NCBI GenBank assembly: GCA_050250895.1
Contig: JBFWNU010000001.1
Location: 3,140,891 to 3,204,890 of the forward strand
Reading direction: 5' to 3'
From: Vulcanimicrobiota bacterium
Lineage (GTDB): Bacteria; Vulcanimicrobiota; Xenobia; Xenobiales; JADMJV01
DNA: 64,000 bases
Of the stretch, positions 1,336-62,348 are shown piece by piece. The position numbers and the translations under genes are program-made. Position 1 is the stretch's first letter, and each line of letters starts with the position of its first letter. The notes beneath the pieces are model-generated. The model was not told the DNA's origin and searched no databases. It saw nothing but the letters and a program-made list of their open reading frames with translations.

Positions 1336-2193
1336 CTAATTGGCTACCAGTTCCCAGCCCTCTGACGAGGTGCCTCCGGCCGACTCGACCCGGTTGCGGC
1401 CACCCTGCTTGGCGCGGTAGAGGGCCTTATCGGCAGCCTGAATCAGGTTGACGAAATTGTCTGACCCGACCACGTCCGTTCCCGCTACGCCCAGGCTCAT
1501 GGTCACCATCAGGCTGCCCCAGATGGTATCGATGGGTCGTGAGCAAAGCTCGCTGCGGATGCGCTCGGCCACCTGGACAGCGAAGGAACTCGAGGCCCCT
1601 GGCAGCACCACCATCATTTCTTCACCGCCATATCGGCCAGGCGAGTCGATGGCCCTGATCGAGATGGCCAGCCGGCGGGCCACCTCTTGCAGCACCGCGT
1701 CACCGCAGGGGTGACCGTGATTGTCGTTGATCCTCTTGAAGTGATCGACATCGCACAGGATGACCGACAGCGAAGTGCGTTGGCGGCGGCTGCGTTCGAG
1801 CTCTTCTTCGAGGATCTCGAAAATGGCGCCCCGGTTGCGGAGCCCGGTCAAGGGGTCGGTGGTGGCTCGCTCGTAGAGTTCGCGGTTGGCTTCTTCGAGT
1901 TGCTCTTTCTGGGCCCTGGACATCAGCAGTCCGCCCGCAAAGGCCAGGGCTTGGCCGGCGGCGGTCAGCAGCAAGCCCATCGGGCCGAGGGTGACGGCGC
2001 CAGCGACGCAGCCGGCCACCATTCCGCCAACGGCCAACAATTTGCCCACCGAGGGCCCGAGAGCGCGCCCACCCGAGAGCTTGACTCCGTCGCTGGGCAG
2101 GGCCGGACCCCCAGGTTGCTCGGTCTTTGGCGTGGCGCGGAAGCGTAGCCCGCTAAGAAAGCTCTTGCCGGGCTCGGGACCTTGAACCTTCAT
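1336..2193 (-). CDS. Diguanylate cyclase (GGDEF) with N-terminal Gly-rich membrane hairpin
   Basis: TDPLTGLRNR, DVDHFKRINDNHGH, RYGGEEM, ADKALYRAKQGGRNRV. Confidence 0.95.
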   Translation of the reverse strand: MKVQGPEPGKSFLSGLRFRATPKTEQPGGPALPSDGVKLSGGRALGPSVGKLLAVGGMVAGCVAGAVTLGPMGLLLTAAGQALAFAGGLLMSRAQKEQLEEANRELYERATTDPLTGLRNRGAIFEILEEELERSRRQRTSLSVILCDVDHFKRINDNHGHPCGDAVLQEVARRLAISIRAIDSPGRYGGEEMMVVLPGASSSFAVQVAERIRSELCSRPIDTIWGSLMVTMSLGVAGTDVVGSDNFVNLIQAADKALYRAKQGGRNRVESAGGTSSEGWELVAN

Positions 2194-2279
2194 GCCAACG
2201 GGTATTCGACGGCGAGGCCAGATTTCCTCGGGGTTTGACCTCGAGAGGAGTGGCAGCTTGTGAACGGAATTGTGGCGGC

Positions 2280-2690
2280 ATGCGAAAGATTTGTATCTTC
2301 TGGCTGGTACTTTGCCTGGCCGGCAATGCCTGGGCCGACCTGACCATCCGCAAAGGCGGCAGTCTGTGGGCCACGGTCGAGTCCGGCGGCACGATCCGTA
2401 TCGGCGGCACCATGGTCGGTGAGTTCGAGTCTAATGGCGCGGTGCGCAAGGCCGGCTCGCTGGTGGGCGAGGTCGAGTCTGGCGGCAATGTCCGCAAATC
2501 GGGCAGTCTCTATGGTCAGCTCGAGAAAAGCGGCTATCTGCGCGTGGGGGGCAGCCTGGTGGGTCAGATCGAAAGCGGCGGGACCATCCGCAAGAACGGC
2601 TCCATGTGGGGGTCGGCCGAGGGGCTGTCAAGCTTTGAGGACATGCGCAAGGTCACCGCGGTTTTGATGTTCTTTAGTGACGAATTTTAA
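2280..2690 (+). CDS. Secreted 16-aa repeat protein (5-fold beta-flower-like)
   Basis: Signal peptide MRKICIFWLVLCLAGNAWA, then five LVGxxESGGxIRKxGS-type repeats. Start moved to ATG 2280. Confidence 0.75.
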   Translation: MRKICIFWLVLCLAGNAWADLTIRKGGSLWATVESGGTIRIGGTMVGEFESNGAVRKAGSLVGEVESGGNVRKSGSLYGQLEKSGYLRVGGSLVGQIESGGTIRKNGSMWGSAEGLSSFEDMRKVTAVLMFFSDEF

Positions 2691-2764
2691 CCTGGTTCAC
2701 CCTTTCTTAAGGTTTTGAGGCCCCATCCCCAGCGGATTTCGTCTAAAATGGCGACGGAGGGGTC

Positions 2765-3052
2765 ATGTCAAAAACCGATCGAAGAAACTATCCCCGGGTG
2801 CTCACCGACACTACCGTGTGCGTCTGGGTCAATGGAAGTCACACCGTTGGCCAGGTTCATGACCTGAGTTCAGGCGGCGCCCGGCTGTCGCTGAGGGGGC
2901 CGCTCCGGGTCGGCCAGACGGTCCGCATGCTGTTCGAGACCGGGGTGAACCGATTCGAAAGCGTCGATGCCGTAGCCGTGCGTCGCTTTGACGACGGGGC
3001 TGGGGTCCGCTTCAAGAGCCCGACGAGTCGGGCCCGTTTATTGGGTCCTTAA
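2765..3052 (+). CDS. PilZ domain protein
   Basis: RRNYPR (RxxxR) and DLSSGG (DxSxxG) motifs. Confidence 0.9.
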   Translation: MSKTDRRNYPRVLTDTTVCVWVNGSHTVGQVHDLSSGGARLSLRGPLRVGQTVRMLFETGVNRFESVDAVAVRRFDDGAGVRFKSPTSRARLLGP

Positions 3053-11322: not shown

Positions 11323-13467
11323 TCACCGTTCGGATTGAGAAATCAGCAAAAGCTTCAGGCCGGCCGGGTTGAGATTGGCCAGGTCCAGCAGATAGCTCGG
11401 CGCCAGGACGAACTTGACGGCCTCGGCCTTGACCGTGATATGGCCGCCCAGCAAGCTCGAATCGCCGGGCTGCTCGACGCTCGGGTCCCCGCCGTAGGCG
11501 ATGACGGTGCCTTGAATGTTCAGTTTTCCCCAACGGGTGACATCGTCGTGACCGAGCTTGCCGATGAAGTCTCCCCAGCTGTAGACGACGCCCTTGAGCT
11601 TGACATCGAAGTAGTCATAGCTGGTGCCGACCTTCTGCAGAGGAGCGATGACGATGTCCTCGCGGGAATAAAGGCTGAAACCCTCGGCGACGGCTCCTGG
11701 ATTGGCGGCCAGGTCGATACCCAGACCGGCCAGCCGGATCTGACCTCCGGCGATGAGCGAAGCACCCTCGCCCTTGAGCCGGCCCCCGATGCGAATGTCT
11801 CCCTCCGAGGTCACGGCGGCGTATTCGCCCGTCGGGTCGATCTCGAACTGCAGGTCCTGAGGCGTGATCGAGTCCGACACACTCGCCTCGTTGAGAAACT
11901 GGAGCTCTTCCGGGGCCACTCCTCCGCTGGAATAGGTGGCCGAAATGTAGGTGTTGGCGGCCGAGTTCGAGACGCTGGTGCCGGGCCCGCTGGTGTAGGG
12001 AGGGTTGGTCAGGGCGGCCCCCCCCACGGCGGTGAAAGTCTGGCCGCTAAAGAGTTCGCTCAGCAACATCGAGGCCGACCCGCTGGCCACCACCGTGCCG
12101 CTGGGAATGTCCCAATTGAGTTGGCCGCTACCGTAGGGTGAGGTGTATTGACCGTTACTGGCGACCTGGGAGAGGAAGTCTTGCAGGTCGGCCGGATTGG
12201 CGGCCAGATAGGTCGGGGCCGACGAAATGTCCACCGGAGTGCCCGGGCTGGGAGGCTGTTCGGCCGCGCCGTGGCGGGGGATGACGGTCAGATCCTGGGT
12301 GCCGGCCAGAGTCGACTCGACGTAGACGCTGTCGGTGATTCGCAAGGTCGGCTTGCCGCTGGCGTTGGTGCCCAGACCCAGCGGTCCGCCGGTCACCACC
12401 GAGCCCGCCAGGCCAGGATTGGCGGTGATGGCGTCGACGTAGTCTTCGTAATTCATGTCGTAGTAATGAAAGCTCGAGTCGGCCTCCCAGAAGACATAGA
12501 CGCCGGCGGGCACGGTGTCGTTGGTGGAATCGGCCTTTTTGAGCTGGTCCCAGGCCACCCGATAAAAGTCGTCGTTAGACTCGACGCCGCGATTGACGTT
12601 GGCGCCTTCGTTGGCGGTGATGGTCGATTTGGCCAGTAGCTCGCCGGCCGAGGTCGAGGTGGCTTCCAGGTTGACGGGGCCGCCGTTGGTGACCTCGAGT
12701 TCGGCCTTGGAACGGATGCGGGGGGCGGCGTCGCTGGCGCTGGCCAGCTCGACCTGGCCGCTTCCCTGCAATTCGACGCTGAACTTGGCGCCGCTCATCG
12801 AGGCGGCGTCCTCGACCGGGGTGGTGGTTAGCTGCAACTCGTCGATCTGATGGATCGACTCGATCACCCGCCGGGTCGCCGAATGAAGGGTAGGATTGGG
12901 GTTGGCGCTGGTGGCCCCGGTCAGTTCCGAGCTACTCACCCCCTCCACCACCAGGGCTACGCAATGAGCCGGCACGGGATGGTCGGCTTGATTGCCGTCA
13001 ACCGACCAGCCAGGCCCGTCGGCGATCGGGATGGGAGCCGGCAGCGAGGCCATCAGGTTGTTGACCGAAAGATGGGGGTTGTCGATGGTGAGGGTAGGAT
13101 CGTCCATCCCGTCCTCTCCGCCGCCGCCGTCTTGATAATTGAAGCGCAGTCGGAACTGGCTGGTGAGCGAGCCGCTCCGGATCAACCCGATGACGTTGCC
13201 GTGGTCTTCCACGACCACCAACTCGGGAGTCTCCACGACCACCGCGTTGGCGTCACCGCGCCAGTTGGGATCGACCTGCAGTCGGGCCAGGGCGTAGTCT
13301 CGGCCCGACAGGGCCGCGGCTTCGGCGGCCGTGTCCCGCTCGCCGCTGCGAACGAGGCCAAAATTCTGAGGGGCGATAGCGGTGGCGGCGGCGACATACA
13401 TGGCCACCAGCAGGGCCATCAACATCACGCCAATGAGCACGATGCCCGTGTTTCGAACTTTTTTCAT
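11323..13467 (-). CDS. PilX-like N-terminal pilus assembly/adhesin protein
   Basis: TGIVLIGVMLMALLV, then AEAAALSGRDYALARL, followed by a long beta-rich body. Confidence 0.7.
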   Translation of the reverse strand: MKKVRNTGIVLIGVMLMALLVAMYVAAATAIAPQNFGLVRSGERDTAAEAAALSGRDYALARLQVDPNWRGDANAVVVETPELVVVEDHGNVIGLIRSGSLTSQFRLRFNYQDGGGGEDGMDDPTLTIDNPHLSVNNLMASLPAPIPIADGPGWSVDGNQADHPVPAHCVALVVEGVSSSELTGATSANPNPTLHSATRRVIESIHQIDELQLTTTPVEDAASMSGAKFSVELQGSGQVELASASDAAPRIRSKAELEVTNGGPVNLEATSTSAGELLAKSTITANEGANVNRGVESNDDFYRVAWDQLKKADSTNDTVPAGVYVFWEADSSFHYYDMNYEDYVDAITANPGLAGSVVTGGPLGLGTNASGKPTLRITDSVYVESTLAGTQDLTVIPRHGAAEQPPSPGTPVDISSAPTYLAANPADLQDFLSQVASNGQYTSPYGSGQLNWDIPSGTVVASGSASMLLSELFSGQTFTAVGGAALTNPPYTSGPGTSVSNSAANTYISATYSSGGVAPEELQFLNEASVSDSITPQDLQFEIDPTGEYAAVTSEGDIRIGGRLKGEGASLIAGGQIRLAGLGIDLAANPGAVAEGFSLYSREDIVIAPLQKVGTSYDYFDVKLKGVVYSWGDFIGKLGHDDVTRWGKLNIQGTVIAYGGDPSVEQPGDSSLLGGHITVKAEAVKFVLAPSYLLDLANLNPAGLKLLLISQSER

Positions 13468-13511
13468 TTTTAGCTCTCACCTTCCAGGAAGGACGGACAC
13501 CCTGTGGTAAA

Positions 13512-14024
13512 ATGTTAGAGTCGAACATGTGTTTCTCCTTCTCTAAGAGGCAAGGCTTCACGCTGGCAGAGATGATTCTGGCCATCGCCTTCGCGGCTGT
13601 GGCCATTCTGACTCTGCTCGTGTTGTGCGGCTCGGCCTTGCGCGCCAACCAGCGGACTGCGGACTCGACTCTGGCCGAAACCTTGGCTCGGTCAGAATTC
13701 GAGCGCCTGCGGGCACGGGTGGCCGGCGACGAGCCGGCCGGTTGCCACGACAGCTTTTGGAACCACACGGGACCGGGGCCCTGGACACCCCCCTGGAACC
13801 CGAGTGGCCAGGTGCGTCTGGATCGAACCGACTTTAGCCTCACCATCTATGCTGAAACGGTGCCCGACGCCACCACCGGCTTCGCCCTGGGCACCGGCCT
13901 CACGGGGGTCGAGCACCCTGACAATCGGGTCAAGAAGGTCGATCTGGTGATCAGCTGGATGGATGGCGAGCGCCAGGGTTATGGCCGCACCACCATCCAT
14001 CGTAGTCGGCTGGTGTGCGAATGA
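13512..14024 (+). CDS. Type IV prepilin-like protein (PilV-like)
   Basis: KRQG|FTLAE class III signal plus hydrophobic helix. Start may be ATG 13527. Confidence 0.8.
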   Translation: MLESNMCFSFSKRQGFTLAEMILAIAFAAVAILTLLVLCGSALRANQRTADSTLAETLARSEFERLRARVAGDEPAGCHDSFWNHTGPGPWTPPWNPSGQVRLDRTDFSLTIYAETVPDATTGFALGTGLTGVEHPDNRVKKVDLVISWMDGERQGYGRTTIHRSRLVCE

Positions 14025-14779
14025 GACGCGGCTTCTCGATGCTCGAGGTGATCGTGGTGCTCGGCATGGCGGCCCTGGTGGCGCTCGTTTTTCAACTGGC
14101 TTTTCGCCAGAGTATCGGCGTCTATCGCAAAGTGGCCAGTGAGGACCTGGCCATGCGCAATCTGCGCAAAGCACGCGATCGTCTCAGTCAGGAGTTGGCC
14201 GTGTCTTGTTTTCAAGAAGTGCGGGTGAGTCCCGGCCCCACCAGTTTGGTGGGTCGCGACGGTGACGCGGTCTGGTTTTTATCGGCCGTCGATCCGGCCA
14301 CCGGCCACTTCATGCGGCGCCAGGACGGAACCCCGTTCTGGCAGAGGACCATCCTCTACTACCCGGTGATTCCCGCCAACAAGTTCGCAGGAGCGGGGTT
14401 GGAGGTGGGCGGCTATGAGGTGAGTTGCCCCAACAAGGTGCTGGTTCGCAAGGTCTTCGATACCGGTCCGGCCACCCACCCCGCCGACGAGTCCACGGCC
14501 GAGGAGTTGCCGGCTGACATGACCCCGTTCTTGGACCGGCCCGATGGTTTTGACACCAGCGCCATGAGCGGCCAGACGGTGAGCCTGGTCGCCACCGACC
14601 TGATCACCTTTCGGGCGGTGGCCGACCCGGCCGTGCGCGAGGTGCGTTTTGACGTGCGTAGTCTGGCCATCGGTGACGCCAGTCGCGAACTGGCGGTGGG
14701 CTCGGTGGACCTGCTCGAGACGCGCTTTACCAGCCGGCTCGATTTTTCTATCTTCCCGATCAATCGCAGCACGCCCTGA
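14021..14779 (+). CDS. Type IV prepilin-like protein (PilW/GspJ-like)
   Basis: MRRG|FSMLE and ATGA overlap with the upstream stop. Confidence 0.8.
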   Translation: MRRGFSMLEVIVVLGMAALVALVFQLAFRQSIGVYRKVASEDLAMRNLRKARDRLSQELAVSCFQEVRVSPGPTSLVGRDGDAVWFLSAVDPATGHFMRRQDGTPFWQRTILYYPVIPANKFAGAGLEVGGYEVSCPNKVLVRKVFDTGPATHPADESTAEELPADMTPFLDRPDGFDTSAMSGQTVSLVATDLITFRAVADPAVREVRFDVRSLAIGDASRELAVGSVDLLETRFTSRLDFSIFPINRSTP

Positions 14780-15830: not shown

Positions 15831-17273
15831 ATGCAAATCCACGCCAACTCTCTCAACTCCACCCCACGAACCTTCAGCTACAACCAGCAGGACTCGTCGG
15901 TCATGCCGGCGGCCACCATCACCCTCGACGATGTCTCGGTCGGCCGTACCCCGGCCACCGACCTGGTGAAACTGCGCAACATTCACTTTCTACCGGCCGA
16001 AGGCCGTTTTGAGCCCGACCCCGCTACCACCCTCAAAGCCAGCAGCAACGGCGACTTCGTCTATTCCGAAGGCAGCCGCGACTACACCACCGCCAACGCT
16101 TTCGCCAGCACCGCCCACACGGTGGCGACCTTCAACGACAAGCTCGAGCAACTCACCGGTAAGTCGATTCATTGGGCCTTCGACGAGGGGCACTTGGGGG
16201 TGGCACCTCACGCCGGGGACAAGATTGCCGAGGACTTTCCCAACGCTTTCTACTATCGCCCCGCTGGCAACCTGTTCTTTTTCAACTATCACAGCGGCGG
16301 CCAGGCCACCAGCACCGGCAACTCGGGCGAGATCGTGGGCCACGAAGCCGGCCACGCCATCCTCGACGCCCTGCGTCCCAATCTGATGGGCTCGTTCAGC
16401 TTCGAAGCCGCAGCCTTTCACGAGGCTTTCGGCGACGCCGTCTCGATCTTGATGTCGCTTGAAGACGAGCGCACTCTAGCCCTGGCTGCCCGCCAGACAG
16501 GTGGTGACCTTTCCAACCCCAATATCATCTCTGAGTTGGGAGAAGAAATGGGCCCGGCCATCGGCCGCAGTTCGGTGCGCGATGCGCGCAACAACTTCCG
16601 CTACGTCGATCCCGACAGTCTGCCGGACCCCAGCAACGAGCGCGTCCCCGCTGACCAGTTGGCTCGCGAGTCGCACAGCTTCGCCCGGGTCTGGACGGGA
16701 GCTTTCTATGAATTGCTCGATAAGGTGGCCGACGACTACCGCGCCCGCGGCGCCAGCCCTCAAGAAGCCCTGCGCGAGGCGGGCCGCGAGGGTTGGAAGA
16801 TGCTCATCGGCCAGATCGACAACGCTCCTCGGGGTAGCTACGTGACCTTCCGCGACATGGCCGGAGCCCTGTTGCGGGGTGATGCCCAGCAGAACGGCGG
16901 AAATCGCCAGGAATTGATCCGCGATGTTTTTGGCGGTCGTAACATTCTCGGCCCCGAGCCCGAGGTCCAGTTTGCCACCGCGGGGGCGGCCCCTCGCCAG
17001 TTCGAGCTGACCCTGGGCCAGGAGTTCGGCGAGCTGGCTGGAGCCAGGGTGAGCTTCCAGGACGAACCCGCCATCTTCGCCTCGAACAGTCCCAAGCACG
17101 GCGAGCGCATCAAGAAGGATCTGGCCGCTCTGCACCGCAACGGCGACATCCTGGTGCCGGCCGAAGGTCACGAGCCTACGCTGGCCGACTTCTTGCGCCC
17201 CGACGGCTCGCATTATCACGCCTATCTCGACCGAGCGAGCAACGAACTCAAACCCGTGCTCCTCGCCGGATGA
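15831..17273 (+). CDS. Zinc metallopeptidase (M4/M36-like)
   Basis: NAFY, HEAGH (HExxH), FHEAFGD, ESH..ARVW. Confidence 0.88.
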   Translation: MQIHANSLNSTPRTFSYNQQDSSVMPAATITLDDVSVGRTPATDLVKLRNIHFLPAEGRFEPDPATTLKASSNGDFVYSEGSRDYTTANAFASTAHTVATFNDKLEQLTGKSIHWAFDEGHLGVAPHAGDKIAEDFPNAFYYRPAGNLFFFNYHSGGQATSTGNSGEIVGHEAGHAILDALRPNLMGSFSFEAAAFHEAFGDAVSILMSLEDERTLALAARQTGGDLSNPNIISELGEEMGPAIGRSSVRDARNNFRYVDPDSLPDPSNERVPADQLARESHSFARVWTGAFYELLDKVADDYRARGASPQEALREAGREGWKMLIGQIDNAPRGSYVTFRDMAGALLRGDAQQNGGNRQELIRDVFGGRNILGPEPEVQFATAGAAPRQFELTLGQEFGELAGARVSFQDEPAIFASNSPKHGERIKKDLAALHRNGDILVPAEGHEPTLADFLRPDGSHYHAYLDRASNELKPVLLAG

Positions 17274-19218: not shown

Positions 19219-19806
19219 CTAGGTTCCCTTCTTCTCCTGGTCGAGGCGGGCTTGAGCCTTCTGCTCTTTCAGGCGAGCGCCAGCGGCCACTTCTTCATCC
19301 GCGTCCGACAGCGGAGCGATGGTGTTGTGAGAGGGAGCCAGAGCCGAACGCTGGACCTTCTGCATCTTCTTGACCGTCTTTTCAGCGTCGGCGTCTTCGC
19401 CGGTGTCGATCATGACCTTGCCGGCCACTCGATAGGCCTGTCCATCGGGCCCGAGCTTGGACTCATAGCTGGGCATGCCCTGGGCCAATTCTTCGGCGGC
19501 CCGGTAGTGGTCCATCTCGTGTTCTTCGACGGCCTTGTCGACCTTGCGCAGCTCTTTGAGTTGCTCACGCTGGCCGTCGGTCATCTCGCCGAGCTTCTCC
19601 CGCGAGACCGAGGGACCACCATCGGTGGAAAAGGCGCTCATCAAACCGTCGAGCAGGTTGCCCGAGGCGCCCTTGTCTTTGCCTTCGGAGGGGGCCCGAG
19701 AGAACTGGTCGGCTTGACCGGCCTGGGCTGGTTGCGAGCCAGCCTTGCGGGCCAGCGGAGGGGCGGTCAGGCGGGGGGCGTCGTTCTCGCGAATGCTACC
19801 GATCAT
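19219..19806 (-). CDS. SprA-related family protein
   Basis: DKAVEEHEMDH, GPDGQAYRVAGKV.ID, KMQKVQRSALAP..LSDAD. GGAGG precedes ATG 19806. Confidence 0.75.
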   Translation of the reverse strand: MIGSIRENDAPRLTAPPLARKAGSQPAQAGQADQFSRAPSEGKDKGASGNLLDGLMSAFSTDGGPSVSREKLGEMTDGQREQLKELRKVDKAVEEHEMDHYRAAEELAQGMPSYESKLGPDGQAYRVAGKVMIDTGEDADAEKTVKKMQKVQRSALAPSHNTIAPLSDADEEVAAGARLKEQKAQARLDQEKKGT

Positions 19807-21209: not shown

Positions 21210-22400
21210 ATGATTCACAATATCGCCACCGCCAGACCCGTGATCGCTACCCCCACTCGAGCTGCGTCGACCGCTCCGGCGACTCCGCAAACTCCTGAGG
21301 CTCCGGTGAGCGACCGCGTTCAGTTGCAGCAGTTGGCGCCCCTCGAGAGCCCCAAGAAGGCCATCGACACGCTGGTCAGCGGACTGGGCTATTGCGAATT
21401 TCCCCAGGTGTCGCCTGACGGCCAGACCCTGGTCTTCAACGTGGTCCACGACTATGCCACTTCGCAGGTGATGGTGGTGCCCGCCAAAGGCGGCAAGGTG
21501 AAGGCCCTGGACACCGGCGAGCGTATCAAGCCCGAGAACGTCTCTGAGTATCTGGCTGCCCACGAAGGTCATATCCTCGAGCAGGCCAGCTGGGCCCGAG
21601 ACGGCAAGTCCCTTTTCTTCCGCAGCAACGAGCAGGGCACATTCGGTATCGGCCAGCACAATATGGCCGACGGCAGTCGCCAGATGCTGGTGCACAACCC
21701 CGACCTCAACATGAAGCATCCCAGCGAGATGCCCGACGGACGCATTGTTTGCTACGGCGGCCCGCCCAGCCAGCAATACCCCACCGTCGATCAATTTTCC
21801 AACCTTTTTATCGCCGACCCCAGCAACGGCGCCATCACGATGCTGACCGATTCGACCGGAGATTTCGCCTACAAGCACCCGGCCGTGCTCGGCGATGTGG
21901 TGGTGGCTCACAAAGAAGACAAACAGGCCGACGGAATGGCCGACCTGATTCGTCTCGACCCGGTCACTCGCGAGCAGGTGAAGATCACCGACACTCCTAC
22001 CGCCGACGAGCGCCATCCCTTCCACAGCCCGGCCGTGGACCTGCTGGTGTACCACCGCAAAGAAGACGGCGATAAGAACCTGGTGCTCTCGACCCCTGAC
22101 GGCAGCCGCACCGCTCAGCTGACCTTCTACGGTCGCCCGGCCCAGTCGCCCTGTTGGTCGCCCGACGGCAAGAAGATTTACTTCGTCAAGAAAGACATCA
22201 AGCAAGCAGAGGGCGAGCCGTTCTATGCTCGCCAGTCCGAAATCCGCGTCATGGATGTCGAGAAGGCCCTCAAAGACCTGAAGAAACAGGCTAAGGACCA
22301 GGTCGAGAAGCTCGAAGGCGAGGGCGCCAAGCCCGAACTGATCGAACTCGCCCGTCAGCAACTCGACAATTACAGCTACTTCTTGCGGAGGTACGACTAG
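21210..22400 (+). CDS. TolB-like PD40 beta-propeller protein
   Basis: PQVSPDGQTLVF, ASWARDGKSLFF, PCWSPDGKKIYF. Confidence 0.85.
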   Translation: MIHNIATARPVIATPTRAASTAPATPQTPEAPVSDRVQLQQLAPLESPKKAIDTLVSGLGYCEFPQVSPDGQTLVFNVVHDYATSQVMVVPAKGGKVKALDTGERIKPENVSEYLAAHEGHILEQASWARDGKSLFFRSNEQGTFGIGQHNMADGSRQMLVHNPDLNMKHPSEMPDGRIVCYGGPPSQQYPTVDQFSNLFIADPSNGAITMLTDSTGDFAYKHPAVLGDVVVAHKEDKQADGMADLIRLDPVTREQVKITDTPTADERHPFHSPAVDLLVYHRKEDGDKNLVLSTPDGSRTAQLTFYGRPAQSPCWSPDGKKIYFVKKDIKQAEGEPFYARQSEIRVMDVEKALKDLKKQAKDQVEKLEGEGAKPELIELARQQLDNYSYFLRRYD

Positions 22401-22406: not shown

Positions 22407-23378
22407 GTGATCAATACCCACGGTTTTCTCATCGCCGGTCAGCCGCTCGCTCACACCGCTGCCCCCACTCCCGGCCGCCAGTTTCTGCTGGAGGGCACCA
22501 CCGATGTTTATGAGGTGTTGCCTCGCGAGCACCGGTTCCAGCCGGGCGAAGGCCCCATTTATCCGGCTCTGGGCAAGAAGCTGCTCCCGGCCGTCGACGC
22601 CCTCGAACAGACGGTGGGCCAGCTGGGTAAGCACCCCACTCCGGAAGAAGCCGACCGCTCCAACATTCGGCGCCTGATCCGGGTCATGCTGACGCTCTCG
22701 AGCGCTTATCAAGATAGCTATCCTGACAAGAAGCTGACCAAAGCCACCCGCAAGCTCAAGCGCGTGGCCTCGGCCATCGGCAAATACAAAGACCATGGCA
22801 TCCTCCAGCAAAAAGTTGACGAGCTCTATCCCAACGGCGTTCCCAGGAAGCTCCAGAAGCGCCTCGATGCTCACCTGGAAAAGCGCGAGGCTGACTTCAA
22901 GAAGGCCTACCGCCAGTTTCGCAAAGAGGATCTGGCCTACGTGGTCGATGTCCTCAGTCGGCCCGCCAGTCTCGACGGTACGCGTTCACCCCACGACATC
23001 CAAAGCGCCGACTGCGCGCGGCTGAGTGGTCACCTGTCGGGTCTGGTCGACGAGGTCGAGAAGGTCGGGCTCACCCATCACGATCCTCACGATTTTCACG
23101 AAGGCCGCAAGGCCTTGCGCTGGGTGCTGCTGACCGCTCAGGGCACTAACGACGTGCTGCCGATTCCTTCGGGCTCGATCGATTCGATGTCGAACCTGGT
23201 CAACGGGTTGGGCGTGGCTCAGGACAGCTGCATCGCCTGGGAGTGGCTGCGCGACGAGGGCTTCAAGTCTGAGGCCAAGGCCATGGAGAAGGAATACTGG
23301 GACCTGCACGACCACGAGTTGGTGGCCGCTCGCCAGTTCCTCGACGCCGGTCACCTCGATCAACTGCGCTCGCTCTAG
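22407..23378 (+). CDS. CHAD domain protein
   Basis: IRRLIR, IGKYKD, FHEGRKALR, LGVAQD, basic helical composition. Confidence 0.7.
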   Translation: MINTHGFLIAGQPLAHTAAPTPGRQFLLEGTTDVYEVLPREHRFQPGEGPIYPALGKKLLPAVDALEQTVGQLGKHPTPEEADRSNIRRLIRVMLTLSSAYQDSYPDKKLTKATRKLKRVASAIGKYKDHGILQQKVDELYPNGVPRKLQKRLDAHLEKREADFKKAYRQFRKEDLAYVVDVLSRPASLDGTRSPHDIQSADCARLSGHLSGLVDEVEKVGLTHHDPHDFHEGRKALRWVLLTAQGTNDVLPIPSGSIDSMSNLVNGLGVAQDSCIAWEWLRDEGFKSEAKAMEKEYWDLHDHELVAARQFLDAGHLDQLRSL

Positions 23379-30827: not shown

Positions 30828-31742
30828 ATGTTGCTCAACACCGCTCAAGTCAAGAGATTCGACTCTGCACCCAACTACAAAGTCTACCGCGGAGCGGGAG
30901 CATCTGCCCGAGAAAGCCAGGACGTCGACCAGGTGACCATCGGCACCTATAACGTCAAGAATCTCTTCGACGGCATCGATCAAGACCCTTCGCGGGGAAC
31001 GACCGAGAAGCCGGACCGCGAGCTGCGAGCCCTGGCAGCAGTGATTGCCAACTCGAAGGCTGACGTGGTGGCGCTGCAGGAAGTCGAGAACATCGATGTG
31101 CTCAACAAGTTCCTGCAGGACTTCATGCCCGAACAGTTCCAGCACGCGGTGCTGGTGGAGGGCAACGACGGCCGCGGAATCGATGTCGCGGTCATCTCAA
31201 AGTTCGACATCACCAACGTGGTTAGCCACAAGGAGAACCGTTTTCCCAAGCCCGACGGTTCGGGACAGACCGACTTCTCCAGGGATCTTTTGCGCGTAGA
31301 CCTGCAGGTAGGTCAGTACCCTCTGAGCGTCTACACCACCCACCTCAAATCAAAGCGTGGCGGCGAAGAGTCGACCGTCCAGCGGCAAGCCGAGGCCAAT
31401 GAGGTTCGGCGGATTCTAGAGCAGGAAATGGGCAACTTCGAAGGCAAGAATTTCGTGGTTACCGGAGACCTCAACGATTCACCCATGGCTAATACCACCA
31501 AAACCATTCGCGAGGGCGAGCCGGGGCATCCCAGGCTGATCGACGGTCTGGACGGCAAGCCCTGGAATCAGCGCGACACCTGGCCCTCAGATCGGCCTCG
31601 ACGCCAGATCGACTTCATCATGTTTCCCGAGCATATGGCCGACAATCTGGTCAAGCAAGAAGTTCAACATCATTCCCAGGCCTCGACTGCCTCGGACCAC
31701 ATGATGGTGGCGGCCACCTTCAATTTGCGGGATGAGGCCTAG
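30828..31742 (+). CDS. Endonuclease/exonuclease/phosphatase family protein
   Basis: TYNVKNLFD, ALQEVE, NDGRGIDV, HLKS, GDLND, SDH. Confidence 0.92.
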   Translation: MLLNTAQVKRFDSAPNYKVYRGAGASARESQDVDQVTIGTYNVKNLFDGIDQDPSRGTTEKPDRELRALAAVIANSKADVVALQEVENIDVLNKFLQDFMPEQFQHAVLVEGNDGRGIDVAVISKFDITNVVSHKENRFPKPDGSGQTDFSRDLLRVDLQVGQYPLSVYTTHLKSKRGGEESTVQRQAEANEVRRILEQEMGNFEGKNFVVTGDLNDSPMANTTKTIREGEPGHPRLIDGLDGKPWNQRDTWPSDRPRRQIDFIMFPEHMADNLVKQEVQHHSQASTASDHMMVAATFNLRDEA

Positions 31743-48703: not shown

Positions 48704-51043
48704 ATGAAAGTACCTGGCAACACAGTCAAACTCGGTGACATCACGCTTCGCCCCGAGAACGTGAACGTCGATACCATCAAGACCCTGGCCGACAAAGCGG
48801 CCGGTTCGGGGGTCGCAGAGGCCAAGGAGGCCAAGGCGGCCATCGATAACTGGGCCAAGACCGGAGAGATCAGCACCGAAGACTATGCCAAGGTAGAAGA
48901 CTTCCGCAAGGCCGCGGGACGCCAGTTCCGCGACCTCAAGAGCGAGTTCTGGGATCGCAAGAATGGCGGTGCCAACTGGGAAGACCTCAAGCCCGTCGAG
49001 GCCAAGATGGGCAAAGTCGGCGCCTTCCTTCACCTCAACGAGAAGATCCGCACCGAATTGCGCGAAGCCACCGCGCTGACAGCCGTCCAGGCTGCGGCGG
49101 GCGCTTCCTTCTCGGGTCCCGTGGGGGTGGTGGCCCTTTATGCCGCCTATTCCAACGGAGCCACCTGGGATGGCTCGGCCGATAAAGCCACCAAAGAATT
49201 ACTCGAGACCTACCAGGGCTACCTCAGTGGCGACTCGCGCATGATTACTGAAGGCAACCTGGTCGAGCAATTCCATCGCGACAGCCTCTGGCACTCCATG
49301 AACGGAGGGCTCAAAGAGGGTATCGCGGACGCCAAGGCCGGCGAGTCGGTCGAACTGACCGAGCAATACTATGAACTCACCTCGGCCGAGATTCTCGGCA
49401 AGAACGCCGAAGCTGTCGACGCCAAAGCCAAGTTTCGGGGCAACATCGATCCCGGCCGCTTGAGCTACCCGGATAAGGACGACAAGGGCTCCTACTTCGA
49501 TGTGGACGACATCCCTCACAAGATGCGCACCGTCATCCAGCTGCTCTCGAAGAAAGGTGCCGATGTCGGCCTCACCATCTTCGCCGTCAACAAGTTGCTC
49601 AACAATAATCCCGAGAACCTGATGCATCGCAAGGTCTTGCGCAAGAACGACGAGGTGACCCTCAGCGGCATGAACGCCAACGACGGGTCGGGCGAGAATG
49701 TCGATGCCGGTTACCGCTTCCGCGGGCCGGTTGCCCGCAAGATTATGGAGAACCTCAAGCGCGATGTGGCCAACTCGGTGGGGGCCGGCATCGAGGAAAT
49801 CTGGGGCGAGAAGCACTTCCAGGGCTTCACCGATGGCCGCCTGAAGGTAGGCGTTCGCGGCATGACCGCCATTCTCGACGTGCTGGGCGGACCCGCTCCG
49901 GCCGACCAGGAACTGGACAAGCCCACCAACATGAAAGAACTCGAGGCCCTGGCCAAGAAGGCCAAGGTCAAGCTGGCCGAGCTGATCGAGGCTCCCGACG
50001 GAGGCGAAGAGAAGGCTCTCGAGGCCATGCTTCACGGCGCAAAGGTCGAGCTGAGCGCTACCGGAAAAGAAAAACTCATCTCGATCATCAACCAGGCCGT
50101 GACCATGACCCAGGCTCCCGACAACATCGAGAGGGCTCAGGATATCAGTCTGCCCTCGGGCGAAAAGGTCGGCACCACCCGGGTGGATCTGGCCGACTTG
50201 CCTACCGAGCGCGAGACGCTGATGCTCGATGCTATCGCCAAAGCCGAAAAGTTCATCTATCTGCCCGGCTTCGTGGTGACCAGGGCGGTGGCCGCCGCCA
50301 TCGTGGCTCGCAAGAACGAACTCGCGGCCCAGGGCAAAGAGCTTGATGTGAAAGTCATCGCCGACCCGGGCGTCTACCCCGGCGGCGACACTCCCAACAG
50401 CTGGGGAGTGAAATTCCTCGAGGATCACGGCATCAACGCCCGCTGGGCGATGCTGACCCGCTCGGGCTGGCACGACCGCAAGATTCACGCCAAGCAGCTG
50501 ATCACCGACAAGGGCGAGATGACCGGCAGCACCAACTTCTCGAACAAGGGAATGAAAGACAACTGGGAGACCTCGACCTTCGTCCACTTCGACCCCGAGG
50601 ATCCCAAATCGATGGCCGATCGCGACCGTTCGGTCGCCCAGTTCATGGAACTGTGGCAGAACAACTCGTTCGAACTCAGCACGCTCGACCTGGCCGGTTG
50701 CTGGAACCGCTACAAACCCGCCGAGGGCAAAGAATACATGGTCGAAGACTCGCGCAACGGCGCCGTCAAGAAGATCATCGGCTGGCTCGAGGATTACGAG
50801 AAAGAAACAGCCGGCTTCATGGCCCGCCTGGCCAAGCGGCCCGACATCGCGCCGGTGGTGGCGTCGATGGTCGCCGACGGCTACTCCGAAGGAGATGCGA
50901 TTCTCAACGGCGTGGTGTCGGTCATCGGTGAACGTCACTACTACGAGGGTCTAGCCCAGCTGCCGGCCTACAAGACGCTGATGGAAGAGAAGGGGAAGGT
51001 CGAGGCCTGGAAGGCCAGAGAGGCTCGCTTCAATAAAGGCTAG
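48704..51043 (+). CDS. Phospholipase D superfamily protein
   Basis: HRKVLRKND..LSGMN and HAKQLITD...TGSTN HKD-type motifs. Confidence 0.85.
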   Translation: MKVPGNTVKLGDITLRPENVNVDTIKTLADKAAGSGVAEAKEAKAAIDNWAKTGEISTEDYAKVEDFRKAAGRQFRDLKSEFWDRKNGGANWEDLKPVEAKMGKVGAFLHLNEKIRTELREATALTAVQAAAGASFSGPVGVVALYAAYSNGATWDGSADKATKELLETYQGYLSGDSRMITEGNLVEQFHRDSLWHSMNGGLKEGIADAKAGESVELTEQYYELTSAEILGKNAEAVDAKAKFRGNIDPGRLSYPDKDDKGSYFDVDDIPHKMRTVIQLLSKKGADVGLTIFAVNKLLNNNPENLMHRKVLRKNDEVTLSGMNANDGSGENVDAGYRFRGPVARKIMENLKRDVANSVGAGIEEIWGEKHFQGFTDGRLKVGVRGMTAILDVLGGPAPADQELDKPTNMKELEALAKKAKVKLAELIEAPDGGEEKALEAMLHGAKVELSATGKEKLISIINQAVTMTQAPDNIERAQDISLPSGEKVGTTRVDLADLPTERETLMLDAIAKAEKFIYLPGFVVTRAVAAAIVARKNELAAQGKELDVKVIADPGVYPGGDTPNSWGVKFLEDHGINARWAMLTRSGWHDRKIHAKQLITDKGEMTGSTNFSNKGMKDNWETSTFVHFDPEDPKSMADRDRSVAQFMELWQNNSFELSTLDLAGCWNRYKPAEGKEYMVEDSRNGAVKKIIGWLEDYEKETAGFMARLAKRPDIAPVVASMVADGYSEGDAILNGVVSVIGERHYYEGLAQLPAYKTLMEEKGKVEAWKAREARFNKG

Positions 51044-58501: not shown

Positions 58502-59239
58502 TTAGGCGATCAGGGCTTCTTGACCGCCCCCGCCCTGACGCAGTTGGGTGGCAGCGGCCTCGGCAGCGATACCCTCGGCGCGCTCGTCGGCGACCTGGAG
58601 CGGCCGATAGCTGACATCGGCCGGGTCAAGAATGTCCATCGGCCTGGCCGATTTCTCTAGGGGCTCGGCCAGTTTGAGCACGGGCGTGGCAGCGGCTTCA
58701 TCAACGCCGCGGTCGGTCTTGAGTTCAGCCACTTTCTCGGGGCCATCGGTGCTCAGTTTGGTGTTGACCATGTTCTCGGCAGCCACGCGAGTGTGGTCGG
58801 GCATATCGGCATTGAGGTCGACGGCGTGATCGCGCGAGTCGAGGGCGCCGATGGCCAGGTCTTCTTCGTGGGTCAGGTCATAGACATCGTCTTCAGGAGC
58901 GTGGACCATCTCGCCGTGCTGGTGAACTTCGCCGGCGCCGACCTGAACATCGCGAGAGTCTTTCTCATTGGTCTCTTCTTTTTTGCGGGTGCGATTGGCC
59001 TGGGCCGATTCGTCGGCCATCGAGGCCATGGCTTCGTCCTGGGCACCGGCCAGCACGCGCTGCTCGTTTAAACGAGCCAGGGTTTCTTCATCGAGACTTT
59101 CGGTTTGATTGGCTTTGGCCTTTTCGGCTACCAGACCGGTGCGAGCTGCCGCCGTGGCGCCCTGATCGGCGCTGACCTTGCTGAGGTCTGGTTGGGGAAC
59201 GCCTCCGGCTGCTCCGGGGTTGAATCTGTTAATCTGCAT
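58502..59239 (-). CDS. Acidic hypothetical protein
   Basis: GGAGG RBS, 245 aa, MQINRF start. Confidence 0.75.
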   Translation of the reverse strand: MQINRFNPGAAGGVPQPDLSKVSADQGATAAARTGLVAEKAKANQTESLDEETLARLNEQRVLAGAQDEAMASMADESAQANRTRKKEETNEKDSRDVQVGAGEVHQHGEMVHAPEDDVYDLTHEEDLAIGALDSRDHAVDLNADMPDHTRVAAENMVNTKLSTDGPEKVAELKTDRGVDEAAATPVLKLAEPLEKSARPMDILDPADVSYRPLQVADERAEGIAAEAAATQLRQGGGGQEALIA

Positions 59240-59595: not shown

Positions 59596-59736
59596 GTGAG
59601 CGATATCCAGATCACCCCTGAAGTCCGTAAGAAAGACAAGGTGCTCGAGCCGGGGCAACTAGAGCTGCTCGAAGCCTTCGCCCTCTCCCAGGCCGCCGTC
59701 GAGGCTACTGCCCTCAGTCGTTTGCGCAACGTTTAG
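59596..59736 (+). CDS. Small protein (46 aa, not in ORF track)
   Basis: MSDIQITPEVRKKDKVLEPGQLELLEAFALSQAAVEATALSRLRNV, preceded by TTGACT-17-CATAAT (59536-59564). Confidence 0.5.
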   Translation: MSDIQITPEVRKKDKVLEPGQLELLEAFALSQAAVEATALSRLRNV

Positions 59737-59738
59737 AC

Positions 59739-60230: not shown

Positions 60231-60395
60231 GCGGGGATACACGGTTTCGCCCGCCTGGCGAGCGGCCTCTTCCTGGCTCAACTCGCGCTCGGCATCGGCC
60301 AGCACCAGTTCGATCAGTTCGGTCAAGGATAGTGGCATGCTCTCAGAGTAGCCGGAAGGTGGCTATAAACCTGAAGCAAATGTATCGATTTTGTG

Positions 60396-61412
60396 TCAGG
60401 CGCGAAGGTAACCCAGTTCCTCGGCTTTGGCCTGTTGCTCTGGGGTGTCGAACAGTTCGGCACTCTCGCCCAGAGGCTTGTCGGTGAGGAAGTTGGCCAT
60501 CGTTTCGACCACCTTGGCGCTGTTTTGGATCTTGCCGTGGCTTTTGAACCAGATGTGGCGGGCGTCGGCACCGGGTAGCTCGGCGGAGCGGCGAGCTACC
60601 ACCGAGTCCCCTTTGATCGTGACTCCCAGGCCGCCCGTGGCGGTAGGATAGCCGTTGCCGGTAAACATCAAGAATTGAGCCCGCTCGCGCTGCAGGCCCC
60701 AGTTCTGGTTCAGGGCGTGCAGTTCGGGGTTGGCGGGAGTTCCGTCTTTGTCCACCGTGTCGAGAGTGAGCCAGTGAAGGGTGCGGCGCACCTCGGGATC
60801 GTCGGTGGGGGGCGAGATGGGAAAACCGAATTTCTCCCGGAAGACCAACTCGAGGTTGGCCAGATACGAGCCGTGGTTAGGCGTGCCCATCTGTACCACG
60901 TGGGCTACCTTCTCGTCGGGGTCCTGCAGATAGTAGCGGGCGTCGAGCCCGCCCAAGCTGTGCACCACCAGATCGACTTCGCTGGCGCCGGTGGCTGCGC
61001 AAACGGCTTCCACGGCGGCTTTGAGCTCGTCTTTGTTGGTCTCGACGCTATTGAACGAGCGCGAGAAGGCTAGCGCGAACATATTCGAGGTGGGGTCGAG
61101 GTTCTCGAACTTTCCGGCCTCGACCACTCCGCCCCAACGATTCTCCCCGGTGGAAGCCAGCCATTCGCCGACCTTGTCCCAGCGATGAGGGTTGCCGTTG
61201 AATCCGTGCACGAACACGATGGGGCGCTTCAGCTGCGGGGGCGGGTCTTTGGGCAGGTCGAACGGTTCGGGATCGGGGTCCACGAACTGTGACGGGAAAA
61301 GGGCCACCTGAGCCGGGGTGAAAGTATCCTGGGCCTCGGCCGGTGCCATGGGGGCCGGGGCCGAACTCGCTTGATGGACTCTTTTGATCGGTTGGAACGG
61401 GGTGATTCTCAA
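60396..61412 (-). CDS. Lipase-like alpha/beta hydrolase
   Basis: PIVFVHGFNG, VHSLGG, GTPNHGS, GDSVV. Confidence 0.9.
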   Translation of the reverse strand: MRITPFQPIKRVHQASSAPAPMAPAEAQDTFTPAQVALFPSQFVDPDPEPFDLPKDPPPQLKRPIVFVHGFNGNPHRWDKVGEWLASTGENRWGGVVEAGKFENLDPTSNMFALAFSRSFNSVETNKDELKAAVEAVCAATGASEVDLVVHSLGGLDARYYLQDPDEKVAHVVQMGTPNHGSYLANLELVFREKFGFPISPPTDDPEVRRTLHWLTLDTVDKDGTPANPELHALNQNWGLQRERAQFLMFTGNGYPTATGGLGVTIKGDSVVARRSAELPGADARHIWFKSHGKIQNSAKVVETMANFLTDKPLGESAELFDTPEQQAKAEELGYLRA

Positions 61413-61568
61413 GGCGAGACTCCTTCGGCCCGATCATGGCCTGGGGTCGCGGTCGAGGTACGAAACGTTTTGTTAAAATCCGGACGGGCCAGACGCCGGA
61501 CCAAGAGCAACAAGTCGGCAACATTTCAGAGAAACGGGCGGGGTAGGCTGCCATAGAGGAGAGACCCA

Positions 61569-62348
61569 ATGCAGCTGTCATCCATACGTGCGTTACCCAA
61601 CTTGCCGCCGGCCCGGGCCACGCGGAGCGCGGCTCCTGAGGCCGTCGAGCCCCAGAGTGCCGACACGGTCCAGATTGGCACTCTCGAAGAGGCGGCCCGT
61701 TTGCCCGTGCTCGATCCGGCTTTCCAAATGGGTCTGGCCGTGGGGGTGCTCTCGTCCTTGATGGGCGGCCCGCGCGAGGTCCCTCCCAAAGTGCAGCTTG
61801 ATGTCGCTTCTCATCAGGGTGATGTGGCCGTGAGCGCCCACTACAATCTGGATCTCTCGGCGGCCACGCCGCTGACCGGGTCGGGTCAGATCGGCGACCA
61901 GACCTTCACCGAGACGGGACGCCTGCAGGACGGCAAGATCCTTTTCGAGGGCCAGGTGGGCCAGGCTCAAGAAGCCCTCGAGATCGAGATCGGTGAAGAC
62001 GAGCGCTCGTTCCATATCAGCGGCAACGCCGGGGCTCTACCAGTCGACCTCGACGTGCAGACCATCCGCAATGGCGAAGGCGCTTTCACTGGCATTTCGA
62101 CGGTCGGCCTGGTGGGTGGCCAACGCTATATGGTCGACGCTCTGATCGACTTGCCCGGTTCGGTCATCGCCGGGGAAAACTCGGGAGCCATGACCGTTCG
62201 CGGCCATATGAACGGCGAGCTGGTGCACAAGAACTACCGCGTTTCGGTGCGCTCGAACGAGGACGGTCTGCTGGTCCAGGCCGACGGCCAGGGTCTTAAC
62301 GCCGGGGTTTTCCAGGCAGTGGACGTCCGCCTGCGCGTCTCGGCCTAG
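61569..62348 (+). CDS. Beta-rich hypothetical protein
   Basis: GAGGAG RBS, 259-aa ORF. Confidence 0.75.
   Translation: MQLSSIRALPNLPPARATRSAAPEAVEPQSADTVQIGTLEEAARLPVLDPAFQMGLAVGVLSSLMGGPREVPPKVQLDVASHQGDVAVSAHYNLDLSAATPLTGSGQIGDQTFTETGRLQDGKILFEGQVGQAQEALEIEIGEDERSFHISGNAGALPVDLDVQTIRNGEGAFTGISTVGLVGGQRYMVDALIDLPGSVIAGENSGAMTVRGHMNGELVHKNYRVSVRSNEDGLLVQADGQGLNAGVFQAVDVRLRVSA

Follow-up and report, generated by a model that had tools for sequence, protein, structure and literature searches.

A non-hydrophobic, two-block N-terminal leader on unrelated proteins of a Vulcanimicrobiota genome: a candidate export signal and its possible motor

Introduction

Two described kinds of export are among those closest to the subject of this report, a two-block N-terminal leader carried by unrelated proteins that are encoded in a stretch of 64,000 nucleotides from a Vulcanimicrobiota bacterium (C1:3140891-3204890 in the contig numbering used here; hereafter the window) and across the remainder of its genome. 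Early subunits of the bacterial flagellum leave the cytoplasm by way of a bipartite signal: in FlgD, as described in PMC8983047, small hydrophobic residues at positions 2-5 are followed by a motif at positions 36-40, the optimal spacer being ~24 residues or more. Flagellar gates are also described as exporting proteins that are not flagellar, including Cia and FlaC in Campylobacter (PMC2764114), and flagellar-gate export is reported for the non-flagellated, predatory Lysobacter enzymogenes OH11 (PMC7688988). The other kind is the SecA2-only accessory export of actinobacteria and firmicutes, to which the helper SatS belongs (PMC6333443).

The initial annotation of the window had compared the N-termini of ten of its proteins with FlgM and had taken them as tags for a flagellar or type III-like export apparatus. 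The analysis presented here establishes that the leader is real, modular and lineage-specific. It is most likely an export signal that replaces the Sec signal peptide, and it is apparently undescribed: the literature on Eremiobacterota flagella, Xenobia secretion and Eudoremicrobi contains no description of it, the supplements of PMC9259500 (with their secretion-system calls) lying outside the scope of that search.

The leader and its genome-wide statistics

The genome comprises 9.5 Mb in 17 contigs at ~62% G+C and is rated 99.6% complete; close homologues of its proteins are labelled Candidatus Xenobia, Candidatus Eremiobacterota/Vulcanimicrobiota and Candidatus Bruticola in their records. 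A codon-usage model called 8018 genes, ranking starts on coding potential, start codon and a Shine-Dalgarno term. Since disordered leaders (disorder being judged here from composition) lower coding scores, every candidate start within the first 120 codons of each open reading frame (ORF) was taken into the leader tests, with 87227 start codons lying more than 150 codons inside genes as the control set.

The second of the two blocks stands out even as a bare pattern. Among the 8018 ORFs, D.V.[LIV][SG] has 42 occurrences at residues 20-29 and 48 at residues 30-39, as against 3-19 in each 10-residue bin between residues 60 and 299, and the matches resemble one family (MKIQPVRTF...APDRVTLS, MRIRPALPS...PADRVELS). 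A position matrix of two blocks, one spanning residues 2-11 and the other the twelve residues around an Asp that is allowed at index 14-55, finds 151 candidate starts at a score of at least 12, for which internal starts predict 2.8; at 14 or more there are 115, with 0 expected, and 202 ORFs reach at least 10. When one half of the ORFs trains the model and the held-out half is scored, 127 starts (122 ORFs) reach 10 against an expected 8.6, and 242 starts (224 ORFs) reach 8 against an expected 35. The family thus numbers ~150 proteins at the strict cut-off and ~200 at the looser one, 2-2.5% of the proteome: what the initial annotation surmised to be a genome-wide set is one.

The two blocks are statistically coupled. 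A second block scoring at least 9 and located at residues 19-42 follows 71 of 1094 first starts of the form M-x-[IV] (6.5%) and 17 of 548 of the form M-[IV]-x (3.1%), a class outside the training set; the corresponding figure for all other first starts is 16 of 6202 (0.26%), and for internal starts 0.05-0.06%. The first block, as seen in 150 members, reads M, [R/K/Q], Ile (81%) or Val (17%) at position 3, x, P (33%), [L/F], the share of Ile and Val being partly circular in that the seed pattern demanded I, L or V at this place. A linker follows in which Pro (2.8-fold), Ala, Ser and Arg are enriched and Asp, Glu and large hydrophobic residues are depleted. The second block has P at -2, x, D (93%), [Q/S/R/T], V (63%) or F (16%), [E/T/S], L (49%), P, I or V, and finally S (51%) or G (29%), with its Asp at index 26-31 (residues 27-32) in 73 of 118 proteins. 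Both classes of Ser codon are used for the conserved Ser (AGY 35, TCN 39) and both Asp codons for the conserved Asp (GAC 85, GAT 54), and the linker has a G+C content at third codon positions of 0.706, compared with 0.778 in all coding sequence; the leader is therefore conserved as protein and not as DNA.

Leader proteins are 80-1651 aa long (median 327) and are scattered across all large contigs. ATG is the start codon of 111 of the 150, and the median open stretch upstream of the start is 10.5 codons; a few members begin at the second to seventh candidate start codon of their ORF. Homologues encoded in other genomes keep the leader. It is covered by no Pfam or NCBIfam model, and the 105 members that were scanned have no N-terminal family in common. 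The genes are mildly clustered, forming 18 adjacent pairs where 8.2 are expected (the maximum in 1000 shuffles being 17). The 533 neighbours of 150 leader genes include 24 response regulators or GGDEF proteins, 9 Ser/Thr kinases, 5 GspF-like platforms, 5 PilZ-like and 4 pseudopilin-like proteins, and other than such common families no conserved partner was found among them. A linkage between GspF-like and leader genes was considered and set aside: a leader gene lies within five genes of 16 of the 67 GspF paralogues, and roughly 15 are estimated by hand from density.

Cargo, and the place of the leader relative to Sec and lipoprotein signals

What follows the leader varies from one protein to the next. 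Clustering by BLASTP of the sequence beyond residue 60 in 145 members yields 116 clusters of at most five proteins each, in keeping with the initial description of unrelated, hydrolase-rich proteins that share an N-terminus. The 105 scanned members match 95 Pfam families, none of them in more than 4 members, and no NCBIfam model is common to the leader proteins. The matches include PAD_porph (4), Peptidase_S8 (3), BamB/PQQ propellers (3), alpha/beta hydrolases and lipases (3), clostripain C11 (2), M48 (2), InhA-like MAM (2) and M36 (2), together with M13, GHL10, alpha-amylase, FGE-sulfatase, RNB, GGDEF and others. Among the top-scoring members are a GHL10 glycosidase, a clostripain, an amylase, a lipase, an adenylate kinase, a DJ-1/PfpI protein, a glycerol-3-phosphate oxidase-like flavoprotein and arginine-deiminase-like proteins. 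Pfam assigns no family to about half of this top-scoring set. The 33 members of fewer than 230 aa that score at least 14 consist mostly of the leader and Gly/Ala-rich glycine-zipper segments; ten small members that were scanned gave no Pfam family, and weak glycine-zipper matches in only one. A membrane-like segment lies within 80 residues after the leader in 40 of 150 members, and in 21 of the 39 that are shorter than 200 aa.

The absence of a hydrophobic Sec signal, to which the initial annotation drew attention, holds across the family: a stretch resembling an h-region (a 10-residue Kyte-Doolittle mean of at least 2.5 within the first 35 residues) is present in 1 of 150 leader proteins, compared with 1650 of the 8018 genes of the proteome. 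Orthologues show what takes the place of the leader elsewhere. In the S8 subtilase C3:669507-671714 the leader ends right before the prodomain (…VPGQVIVKLRPG). Among 120 homologues, 37 score at least 8 on the leader model and many more have drifted versions of it, while six, from other phyla (e.g., Calditrichaeota), have a classical signal peptide immediately preceding the same prodomain motif. The GHL10 protein C3:568864-570339, relatives of which are labelled 'lipoprotein YddW' by one source, repeats the pattern: 20 of 119 homologues score at least 8 on the leader model (one of them labelled Candidatus Xenobia), and in 39, from Myxococcales, Nannocystis and others, a Sec or lipoprotein signal immediately precedes the same HxRELRGAWVA start. 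The M36-like peptidase of the window behaves differently from these two families: its close homologues, one labelled Candidatus Bruticola, keep M-x-I starts and the leader, and its distant homologues (Chloroflexi, Gemmatimonadaceae) are without any signal. That the leader occupies the position of Sec and lipoprotein signals in relatives of the S8 and GHL10 proteins argues that it acts as a substitute for them, and we infer from this position that it would do the job of an inner-membrane export signal.

The cargo includes types that reside in the envelope in other bacteria, namely a YddW-type lipoprotein glycosidase, BamB/TolB-like propellers and LoiP-like M48 peptidases. Delivery to the periplasm across the inner membrane therefore fits this cargo better than ejection in one step. 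As to the twin-arginine (Tat) route, Arg is frequent at leader positions 14-16 but no h-region follows, the strict twin-arginine pattern itself not having been counted.

A second SecA-like ATPase distributed with the leader

The genome has one SecY match (and no SecY2), and it has a second SecA-like gene, C12:63314-66898, whose 1194-aa product carries the complete set of SecA domains (SecA_DEAD, PP_bind, P-loop_SecA and SecA_SW) after a disordered extension of 170 aa. An element of the form [DE]-x-[F/V/L], preceded by Pro/Ala and located ~33-45 residues into this extension, is present in 14 of 15 orthologues, and a tetratricopeptide repeat (TPR) gene adjoins the SecA-like gene at 10 of 15 loci; in the window genome the C12 locus also contains two ExbD genes and a subtilase without a signal.

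Two samples allow the distributions of the leader and of this ATPase to be compared: 30 relatives of the window genome and, separately, 121 genomes sampled from the phylum (whose tallies include a single unpublished genome, G120, which is leader-negative). Of the 12 relatives with at least 7 leader hits, 11 have the long SecA; of the 18 with 6 or fewer, 4 have it, and of ten small genomes none. In the phylum sample the leader profile matches 27 of the 121 genomes, nearly all of them in the window's own class, and none of the 56 genomes of the largest other family; two or more SecA_DEAD matches, which are matches and not copy numbers, are found in 20 of the 27 genomes with a leader hit versus 3 of the 94 without. 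The small-genome family repeats this association on a lesser scale: leader hits occur in all four genomes (3.7-4.7 Mb) of the two genera that possess a second SecA, and in the three genera without it leader hits occur in 2 of 13 genomes. Four genomes of 7-8 Mb from another class have one SecA and 0-1 weak leader hit each, so that genome size alone is not the explanation. In G056, which belongs to yet another class, the second SecA itself passes the leader model with its N-terminus (score 10.0), and the genome has six leader hits with convincing sequences (e.g., MNISAQP...PKDSFEPS). The second SecA thus tracks the leader better than does the flagellar gate, the distribution of which is described below. 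It may be added that SecA_DEAD matches reach 4-6 per genome in G009, G001, G018 and G088, and that G009 has several long SecA-like genes: the accessory SecA appears to have expanded in this class.

Flagellar gates and FlgM

The export genes that a flagellar route presupposes are present in the genome as two full FlhA/FlhB sets. The genes of one flagellar core are scattered over C1 (126-129 kb, 545 kb and 555-594 kb; hereafter the dispersed set), together with genes for flagellin, FlgK/L, FlgM, FliA, Mot and the L and P rings; the other is a compact cluster running from flgB to flhA (C1:1458932-1476156). The FlhA of the compact cluster has 77-95% identical orthologues in nearly all 30 relatives, and is also present in the ten small genomes (2.2-3.5 Mb), which have 0-2 weak leader hits. 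The second type of FlhA (the extra gate, ~45% identity) is found in 6 of the 30 relatives, all with large genomes, and was not detected in leader-rich G016 and G020. The dispersed set, with its genes for the L and P rings, flagellin, FliA and FlgM, is confined to some of the large genomes. Across the phylum sample full-length FlhA occurs in 112 of 121 genomes, namely in 26 of the 27 that have a leader hit and in 86 of the 94 that lack one; with FlhA in so many leader-negative genomes, there is no comparative support for a flagellar link. The proposal of flagellar or type III export, as initially made, thus survives in part: the leader behaves as an export signal, it has a bipartite layout and gates are present, but its distribution does not follow FlhA and the second SecA tracks it better. 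With early flagellar substrates the leader shares a hydrophobic residue at position 3 and a motif at least ~24-30 residues downstream. When the leader (alignment A2) was modelled in complex with the FlhA-C and FlhB-C domains of the conserved gate, the prediction scored 0.11, the mark being 0.32, and it counts neither way.

A family match to FlgM, with which the initial annotation compared the leader, is not borne out. Pfam FlgM matches none of the ten window proteins at E<=0.1, and in a whole-genome scan at E<=1 it matches three places, of which only the true FlgM (C1:558747-558902) is significant. FlgM is found in 6 of 31 genomes, the window genome and five of its 30 relatives, which are those with the extra gate, and the FlgMs of these six genomes do not exceed 8.3 when scored with the leader model; the view of the leader as a copied FlgM N-terminus was dropped on this account. 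Leader proteins also lack the gene context of FlgM in that they are not small late-flagellar proteins (FlgM has ~90-100 aa).

Eight proteins of the genome contain, of FlhA, the cytoplasmic domain only: C6:529281-530666, C1:2013805-2014935, C7:121829-122929, C1:1126937-1128199, C7:117220-118743, C1:2008491-2009819, C8:31611-33212 and C1:2473655-2476609. One is fused to an Xre-type helix-turn-helix (HTH_3, with FHIPEP at 321-578), one to the C-terminal part of FlhB-C, and one, of 984 aa, also matches FliG; the relatives have 2-19 FHIPEP matches. Such proteins may be sensors or adaptors for export substrates. Divergently placed beside flgB of the compact cluster is a gene for a 150-aa protein (C1:1476513-1476965, plus strand) with SDVFTPSE at residue ~43, which is the D-x-F-x-P-S form of the second block; the protein has no first block.

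A proposed explanation and its alternatives

The explanation that we favour, tentatively and with slightly more doubt than confidence, is that the leader is a lineage-specific, non-hydrophobic, bipartite export leader in the role of a Sec or lipoprotein signal, with the second SecA as its most likely motor. The leader would be recognised in the cytoplasm and the protein handed over, unfolded, across the inner membrane to the envelope or beyond; the motor would be the long SecA-like ATPase working with the single SecY, its conserved TPR neighbour serving as a possible adaptor. The strand-like D-x-V-x-L-S element would be the docking piece, and the similar element in the extension of the SecA-like protein perhaps a built-in pseudo-substrate or a shared docking tag. 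Where the outer membrane must also be passed, an expanded machinery resembling type II secretion and type IV pili could provide the route. A considerably more ambitious version can be framed, which we regard as unlikely, if worth stating: that this is a third general bacterial N-terminal export signal beside Sec and Tat, read through a short strand-like motif by an accessory SecA that carries a copy of that motif as pseudo-substrate or docking tag. In this version hydrolases and glycine-zipper membrane toxins amounting to 2-3% of the proteome would reach the envelope and be carried onward by pilus and type II-like machines with 67 platforms; these proteins would be the attack kit of an Eremiobacterota lineage that may be predatory. 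Predation has been suggested as the way of life of marine members of the phylum that have large genomes (PMC9259500).

Several observations weigh against the favoured explanation. Sec translocation normally requires a hydrophobic core, and the leader has none. The SecA-like protein carries the motif and may be simply one more cargo, in which case its co-distribution with the leader would be trivial. There are exceptions in both directions: G007 (96% complete) and G005 (94%) have 3-4 leader hits and one SecA, the long SecA is missing from G012 (82%), which has 10 leader hits, and in G040 and G045 two SecA matches go with no leader hit. Because the compared genomes are close kin, the counts make the cases look more independent than they are; the pattern of leader and SecA is in part confounded with genome size; and the leader profile derives from one genome and loses sensitivity with evolutionary distance, which makes the lack of a hit weak evidence. 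Some cargo looks cytoplasmic: adenylate kinase (C14:19260-20015), the glycerol-3-phosphate oxidase/dehydrogenase-like flavoprotein (C5:43741-45705), DJ-1/PfpI (C3:623955-624707), GGDEF, and the RNase R-like protein and cytidine deaminase recognised by NCBIfam models. In the GGDEF protein of the window, whose leader is followed by Gly/Ala-rich membrane segments and then by GGDEF at residues 110-268, the leader would probably lie on the cytoplasmic side if the membrane segments are two. The gene starts are home-made calls and single members may be false; a few high scorers, an enoyl-CoA hydratase and a hydrolase of metallo-beta-lactamase fold, are likely to be so.

Cytoplasmic-looking cargo (kinase, nucleases, deaminase) would suit injected effectors, and a rival account along these lines has flagellar-type III export as the route: Ile or Val at position 3 would open the gate, D-x-V-x-L-S would dock at FlhB-C or FlhA-C, and the proteins would be ejected as effectors. 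The layout matches that described in PMC8983047, since 98% of leader proteins have Ile or Val as their third residue and the Asp lies at residues 27-32; two core sets and eight soluble FlhA-C paralogues, one of them fused to FlhB-C, are at hand, and the shipping of non-flagellar proteins through such gates is on record in Campylobacter (PMC2764114) and Lysobacter (PMC7688988). Yet the consensus of the second block differs from the F-x-x-x-hydrophobic gate motif, full-length FlhA is also present in most genomes without a leader hit (86 of 94), the conserved gate is kept in ten leader-poor small genomes and the extra gate is confined to 6 of 30 relatives, without detection in G016 and G020; there is no Pfam FlgM match and true FlgMs stay at or below 8.3; and envelope-resident cargo and the one-for-one exchange with Sec and lipoprotein signals fit periplasmic delivery better. 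On balance we consider this rival improbable, though it deserves to be kept in mind. Another, which we rate as a poor bet but a serious one, is a dedicated, undescribed route or destination, with a transit-peptide-like leader and an unknown receptor, leading either to export or to import into an internal compartment, and with the second SecA among its cargo. The linker, in which Pro, Ala, Ser and Arg abound and Asp and Glu are scarce, resembles organelle transit peptides in composition; digestive enzymes are mixed with housekeeping paralogues and a complete SecA; the SecA-like protein is itself motif-bearing, and no curated model covers the leader. Against such a route, no candidate receptor or channel was found, the neighbours of leader genes offering only common families, and the swap with ordinary Sec signals in orthologues argues for an ordinary destination.

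The leader might instead be a cytoplasmic docking or control tag without any export, a handle by which a chaperone, protease or scaffold restrains or places dangerous enzymes and membrane-active peptides. The 40 members with a membrane-like segment close behind the leader can be cited in favour, as can the GGDEF protein and the SecA-like ATPase, which need their catalytic parts in the cytoplasm, and the TPR and FlhA-C-like proteins as possible readers. Such a tag would leave subtilases with prodomains, M13 and clostripain-type peptidases, lipases, an amylase and a YddW-type glycosidase without an exit, and orthologues elsewhere have export signals at the very same position; it seems to us quite improbable. 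That the leader is nothing but chance similarity, mis-called starts or a conserved DNA or RNA element upstream of genes is barely credible. Short blocks, a low-complexity linker, home-made gene calls and some late candidate starts invite the suspicion, but the internal-start controls, cross-validation, coupling of the blocks, diversity of synonymous codons, the preponderance of ATG starts with short open stretches upstream, and retention of the leader in homologues of other genomes tell against it; for the family as a whole it was rejected on the internal-start, cross-validation, coupling and codon tests.

Leader genes of the window and other secretion machinery

All ten genes named in the initial annotation lie where it placed them, and its domain labels (GGDEF, M36-like, PD40/TolB-like, EEP, alpha/beta-hydrolase/lipase, SprA-related, CHAD and PLD) hold in Pfam. 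As examples of the leader they fare unequally: six pass clearly (12.9-18.4), the TolB-like protein is plausible, and the SprA-like, CHAD and PLD proteins score below 4. The highest score, 18.4, belongs to the lipase/alpha-beta hydrolase 60396-61412 (minus strand; Abhydrolase_1/Lipase_2), which begins with a TTG codon: its leader, residues 1-34 (61311..61412, MRITPFQP...AQDTFTPA), has a second block of the D-x-F-x-P form, and four leader-bearing paralogues are encoded elsewhere in the genome. The GGDEF protein 1336-2193 (minus strand; Pfam GGDEF) scores 15.5 with MKVQGP...PSDGVKLSG at residues 1-40 (2074..2193). The leader of the 259-aa protein 61569-62348 (plus strand) occupies residues 1-37 (61569..61679, MQLSSI...SADTVQIG) and scores 14.2; there are 4 open codons upstream of the start and no Pfam family. 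The M36-like metallopeptidase 15831-17273 (plus strand), with 2 open codons upstream of its start, scores 14.0 with residues 1-38 (15831..15944, MQIHAN...LDDVSVG).

Two of the six are weaker than their totals suggest. The 245-aa protein 58502-59239 (minus strand; no Pfam family) has a leader-like N-terminus (59120..59239, MQINRFNPG...) that scores 12.9 by virtue of a strong first block (7.3) and a weak second (5.6). The EEP nuclease/phosphatase 30828-31742 (plus strand) has an uncertain leader (30828..30944, MLLNTA...VDQVTIG; score 13.6, of which the first block contributes 2.3): the caution, entered in the initial annotation, that the motif overlaps the first strand of the domain is justified, the Pfam domain beginning at residue 37-39, and the example is doubtful inasmuch as the second block is that strand. 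The PD40/TolB-like propeller 21210-22400 (plus strand; Pfam PD40) has a possible variant leader with an M-I-H start (21210..21329, MIHNIA...VSDRVQLQ) in which the second block scores 7.2 and the first does not pass the model; starts of the M-[IV]-x form are enriched across the genome, and the protein is a plausible but unproven member. Three are not members: the SprA-related protein (19219..19806, minus strand; Pfam SprA-related) and the CHAD protein (22407..23378, plus strand; Pfam CHAD) score below 3, and the PLD-like protein (48704..51043, plus strand; Pfam PLDc_2) scores 3.5, with the motif at residue 7 and no spacer.

At 11323-14779 of the window three neighbouring genes encode prepilin-like N-termini (e.g., ...KRQGFTLAEMILAIAF), part of an expansion of pili and pseudopilins. 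An extraordinary number of GspF/PilC-like platform paralogues, 67, is encoded in the genome (e.g., C1:2106682-2107878 and C7:19322-21812), and T2SSF domain matches number from 47 to at least 97 in large-genome relatives versus 8-12 in the small-genome family. The genome contains no TssC (type VI) or VirB4 (type IV) match; it has two secretins and a single stand-alone C39 domain, in a frame of 233 aa. Type VI, type IV and double-glycine/C39 routes were rejected for the leader proteins, their core genes being absent. Two pairs of identical or near-identical short ORFs, the members of each lying ~5 kb apart (C3:199260-199598 and C3:204994-205332; C15:8205-8558 and C15:13017-13370), suggest recent local duplications or repeats.

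Significance and comparison with known systems

Export signals underlie every prediction of which proteins a bacterium places in its envelope or releases to its surroundings, and standard predictors would miss this leader: ~150-200 proteins per genome would be wrongly read as cytoplasmic, among them the majority of those proteases, lipases and glycosidases that are plainly of a secreted type but have no Sec signal. A non-hydrophobic leader defined by its sequence would also help to show how clients are selected by accessory SecA motors or, alternatively, by flagellar gates, a question still open in well-studied systems because clients there share no consensus. For an uncultured phylum rich in natural products, it further constitutes a ready list of candidate effectors.

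The Sec or lipoprotein signal peptide is the counterpart in position: the leader is found in the same place, directly ahead of the mature domain or prodomain, and the two are interchangeable between orthologues. They differ in that the leader has no h-region and no lipobox, extends over ~35-40 residues and contains two conserved blocks. The double-glycine leader of C39-ABC exporters is likewise a non-hydrophobic N-terminal leader that stands before small, Gly-rich, membrane-active peptides; the leader described here is without a Gly-Gly cleavage consensus, and many of its cargo proteins have 300-1650 aa.

FlgM (PF04316) resembles the leader proteins in its M-x-[IV] start, its disordered N-terminus and, in the FlgMs of this lineage, an x-V-x-[LV]-S element ~40 residues in; it differs in having no Asp and a longer spacer. 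The FlgD-type signal of Salmonella, as presented in PMC8983047, is closer in design, with a hydrophobic N-terminal residue, a disordered spacer of ~24-30 residues, a short docking motif, no hydrophobic core, and recognition in the cytoplasm. The gate motif of early substrates given in that source is F-x-x-x-hydrophobic, as compared with P-x-D-x-[V/F]-x-[L/P]-[S/G] in the leader; moreover, the leader is strongly conserved on ~150-200 proteins that are not flagellar, and its distribution does not follow the gate. The Campylobacter and Lysobacter cases share with the present one that hydrolases or toxins without Sec signals leave cells that have a flagellar gate, but the substrates described there (PMC2764114, PMC7688988) are a handful with no consensus leader among them, and for the leader a link to the gate is unsupported.

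SecA2-only export, as treated in PMC6333443, is matched in its general plan: a second SecA stands beside one SecY, where it serves or, in the present case, would serve a subset of proteins, possibly with a helper, SatS there and the TPR protein here. The paralogue described in this report is longer than SecA, with a 170-aa N-terminal extension that contains a leader-like element. We know of no sequence-defined, non-hydrophobic leader in SecA2-only systems. Their hosts are actinobacteria and firmicutes; the host of this leader belongs to an Eremiobacterota lineage and is probably two-membraned, since it has the genes for the flagellar L and P rings.

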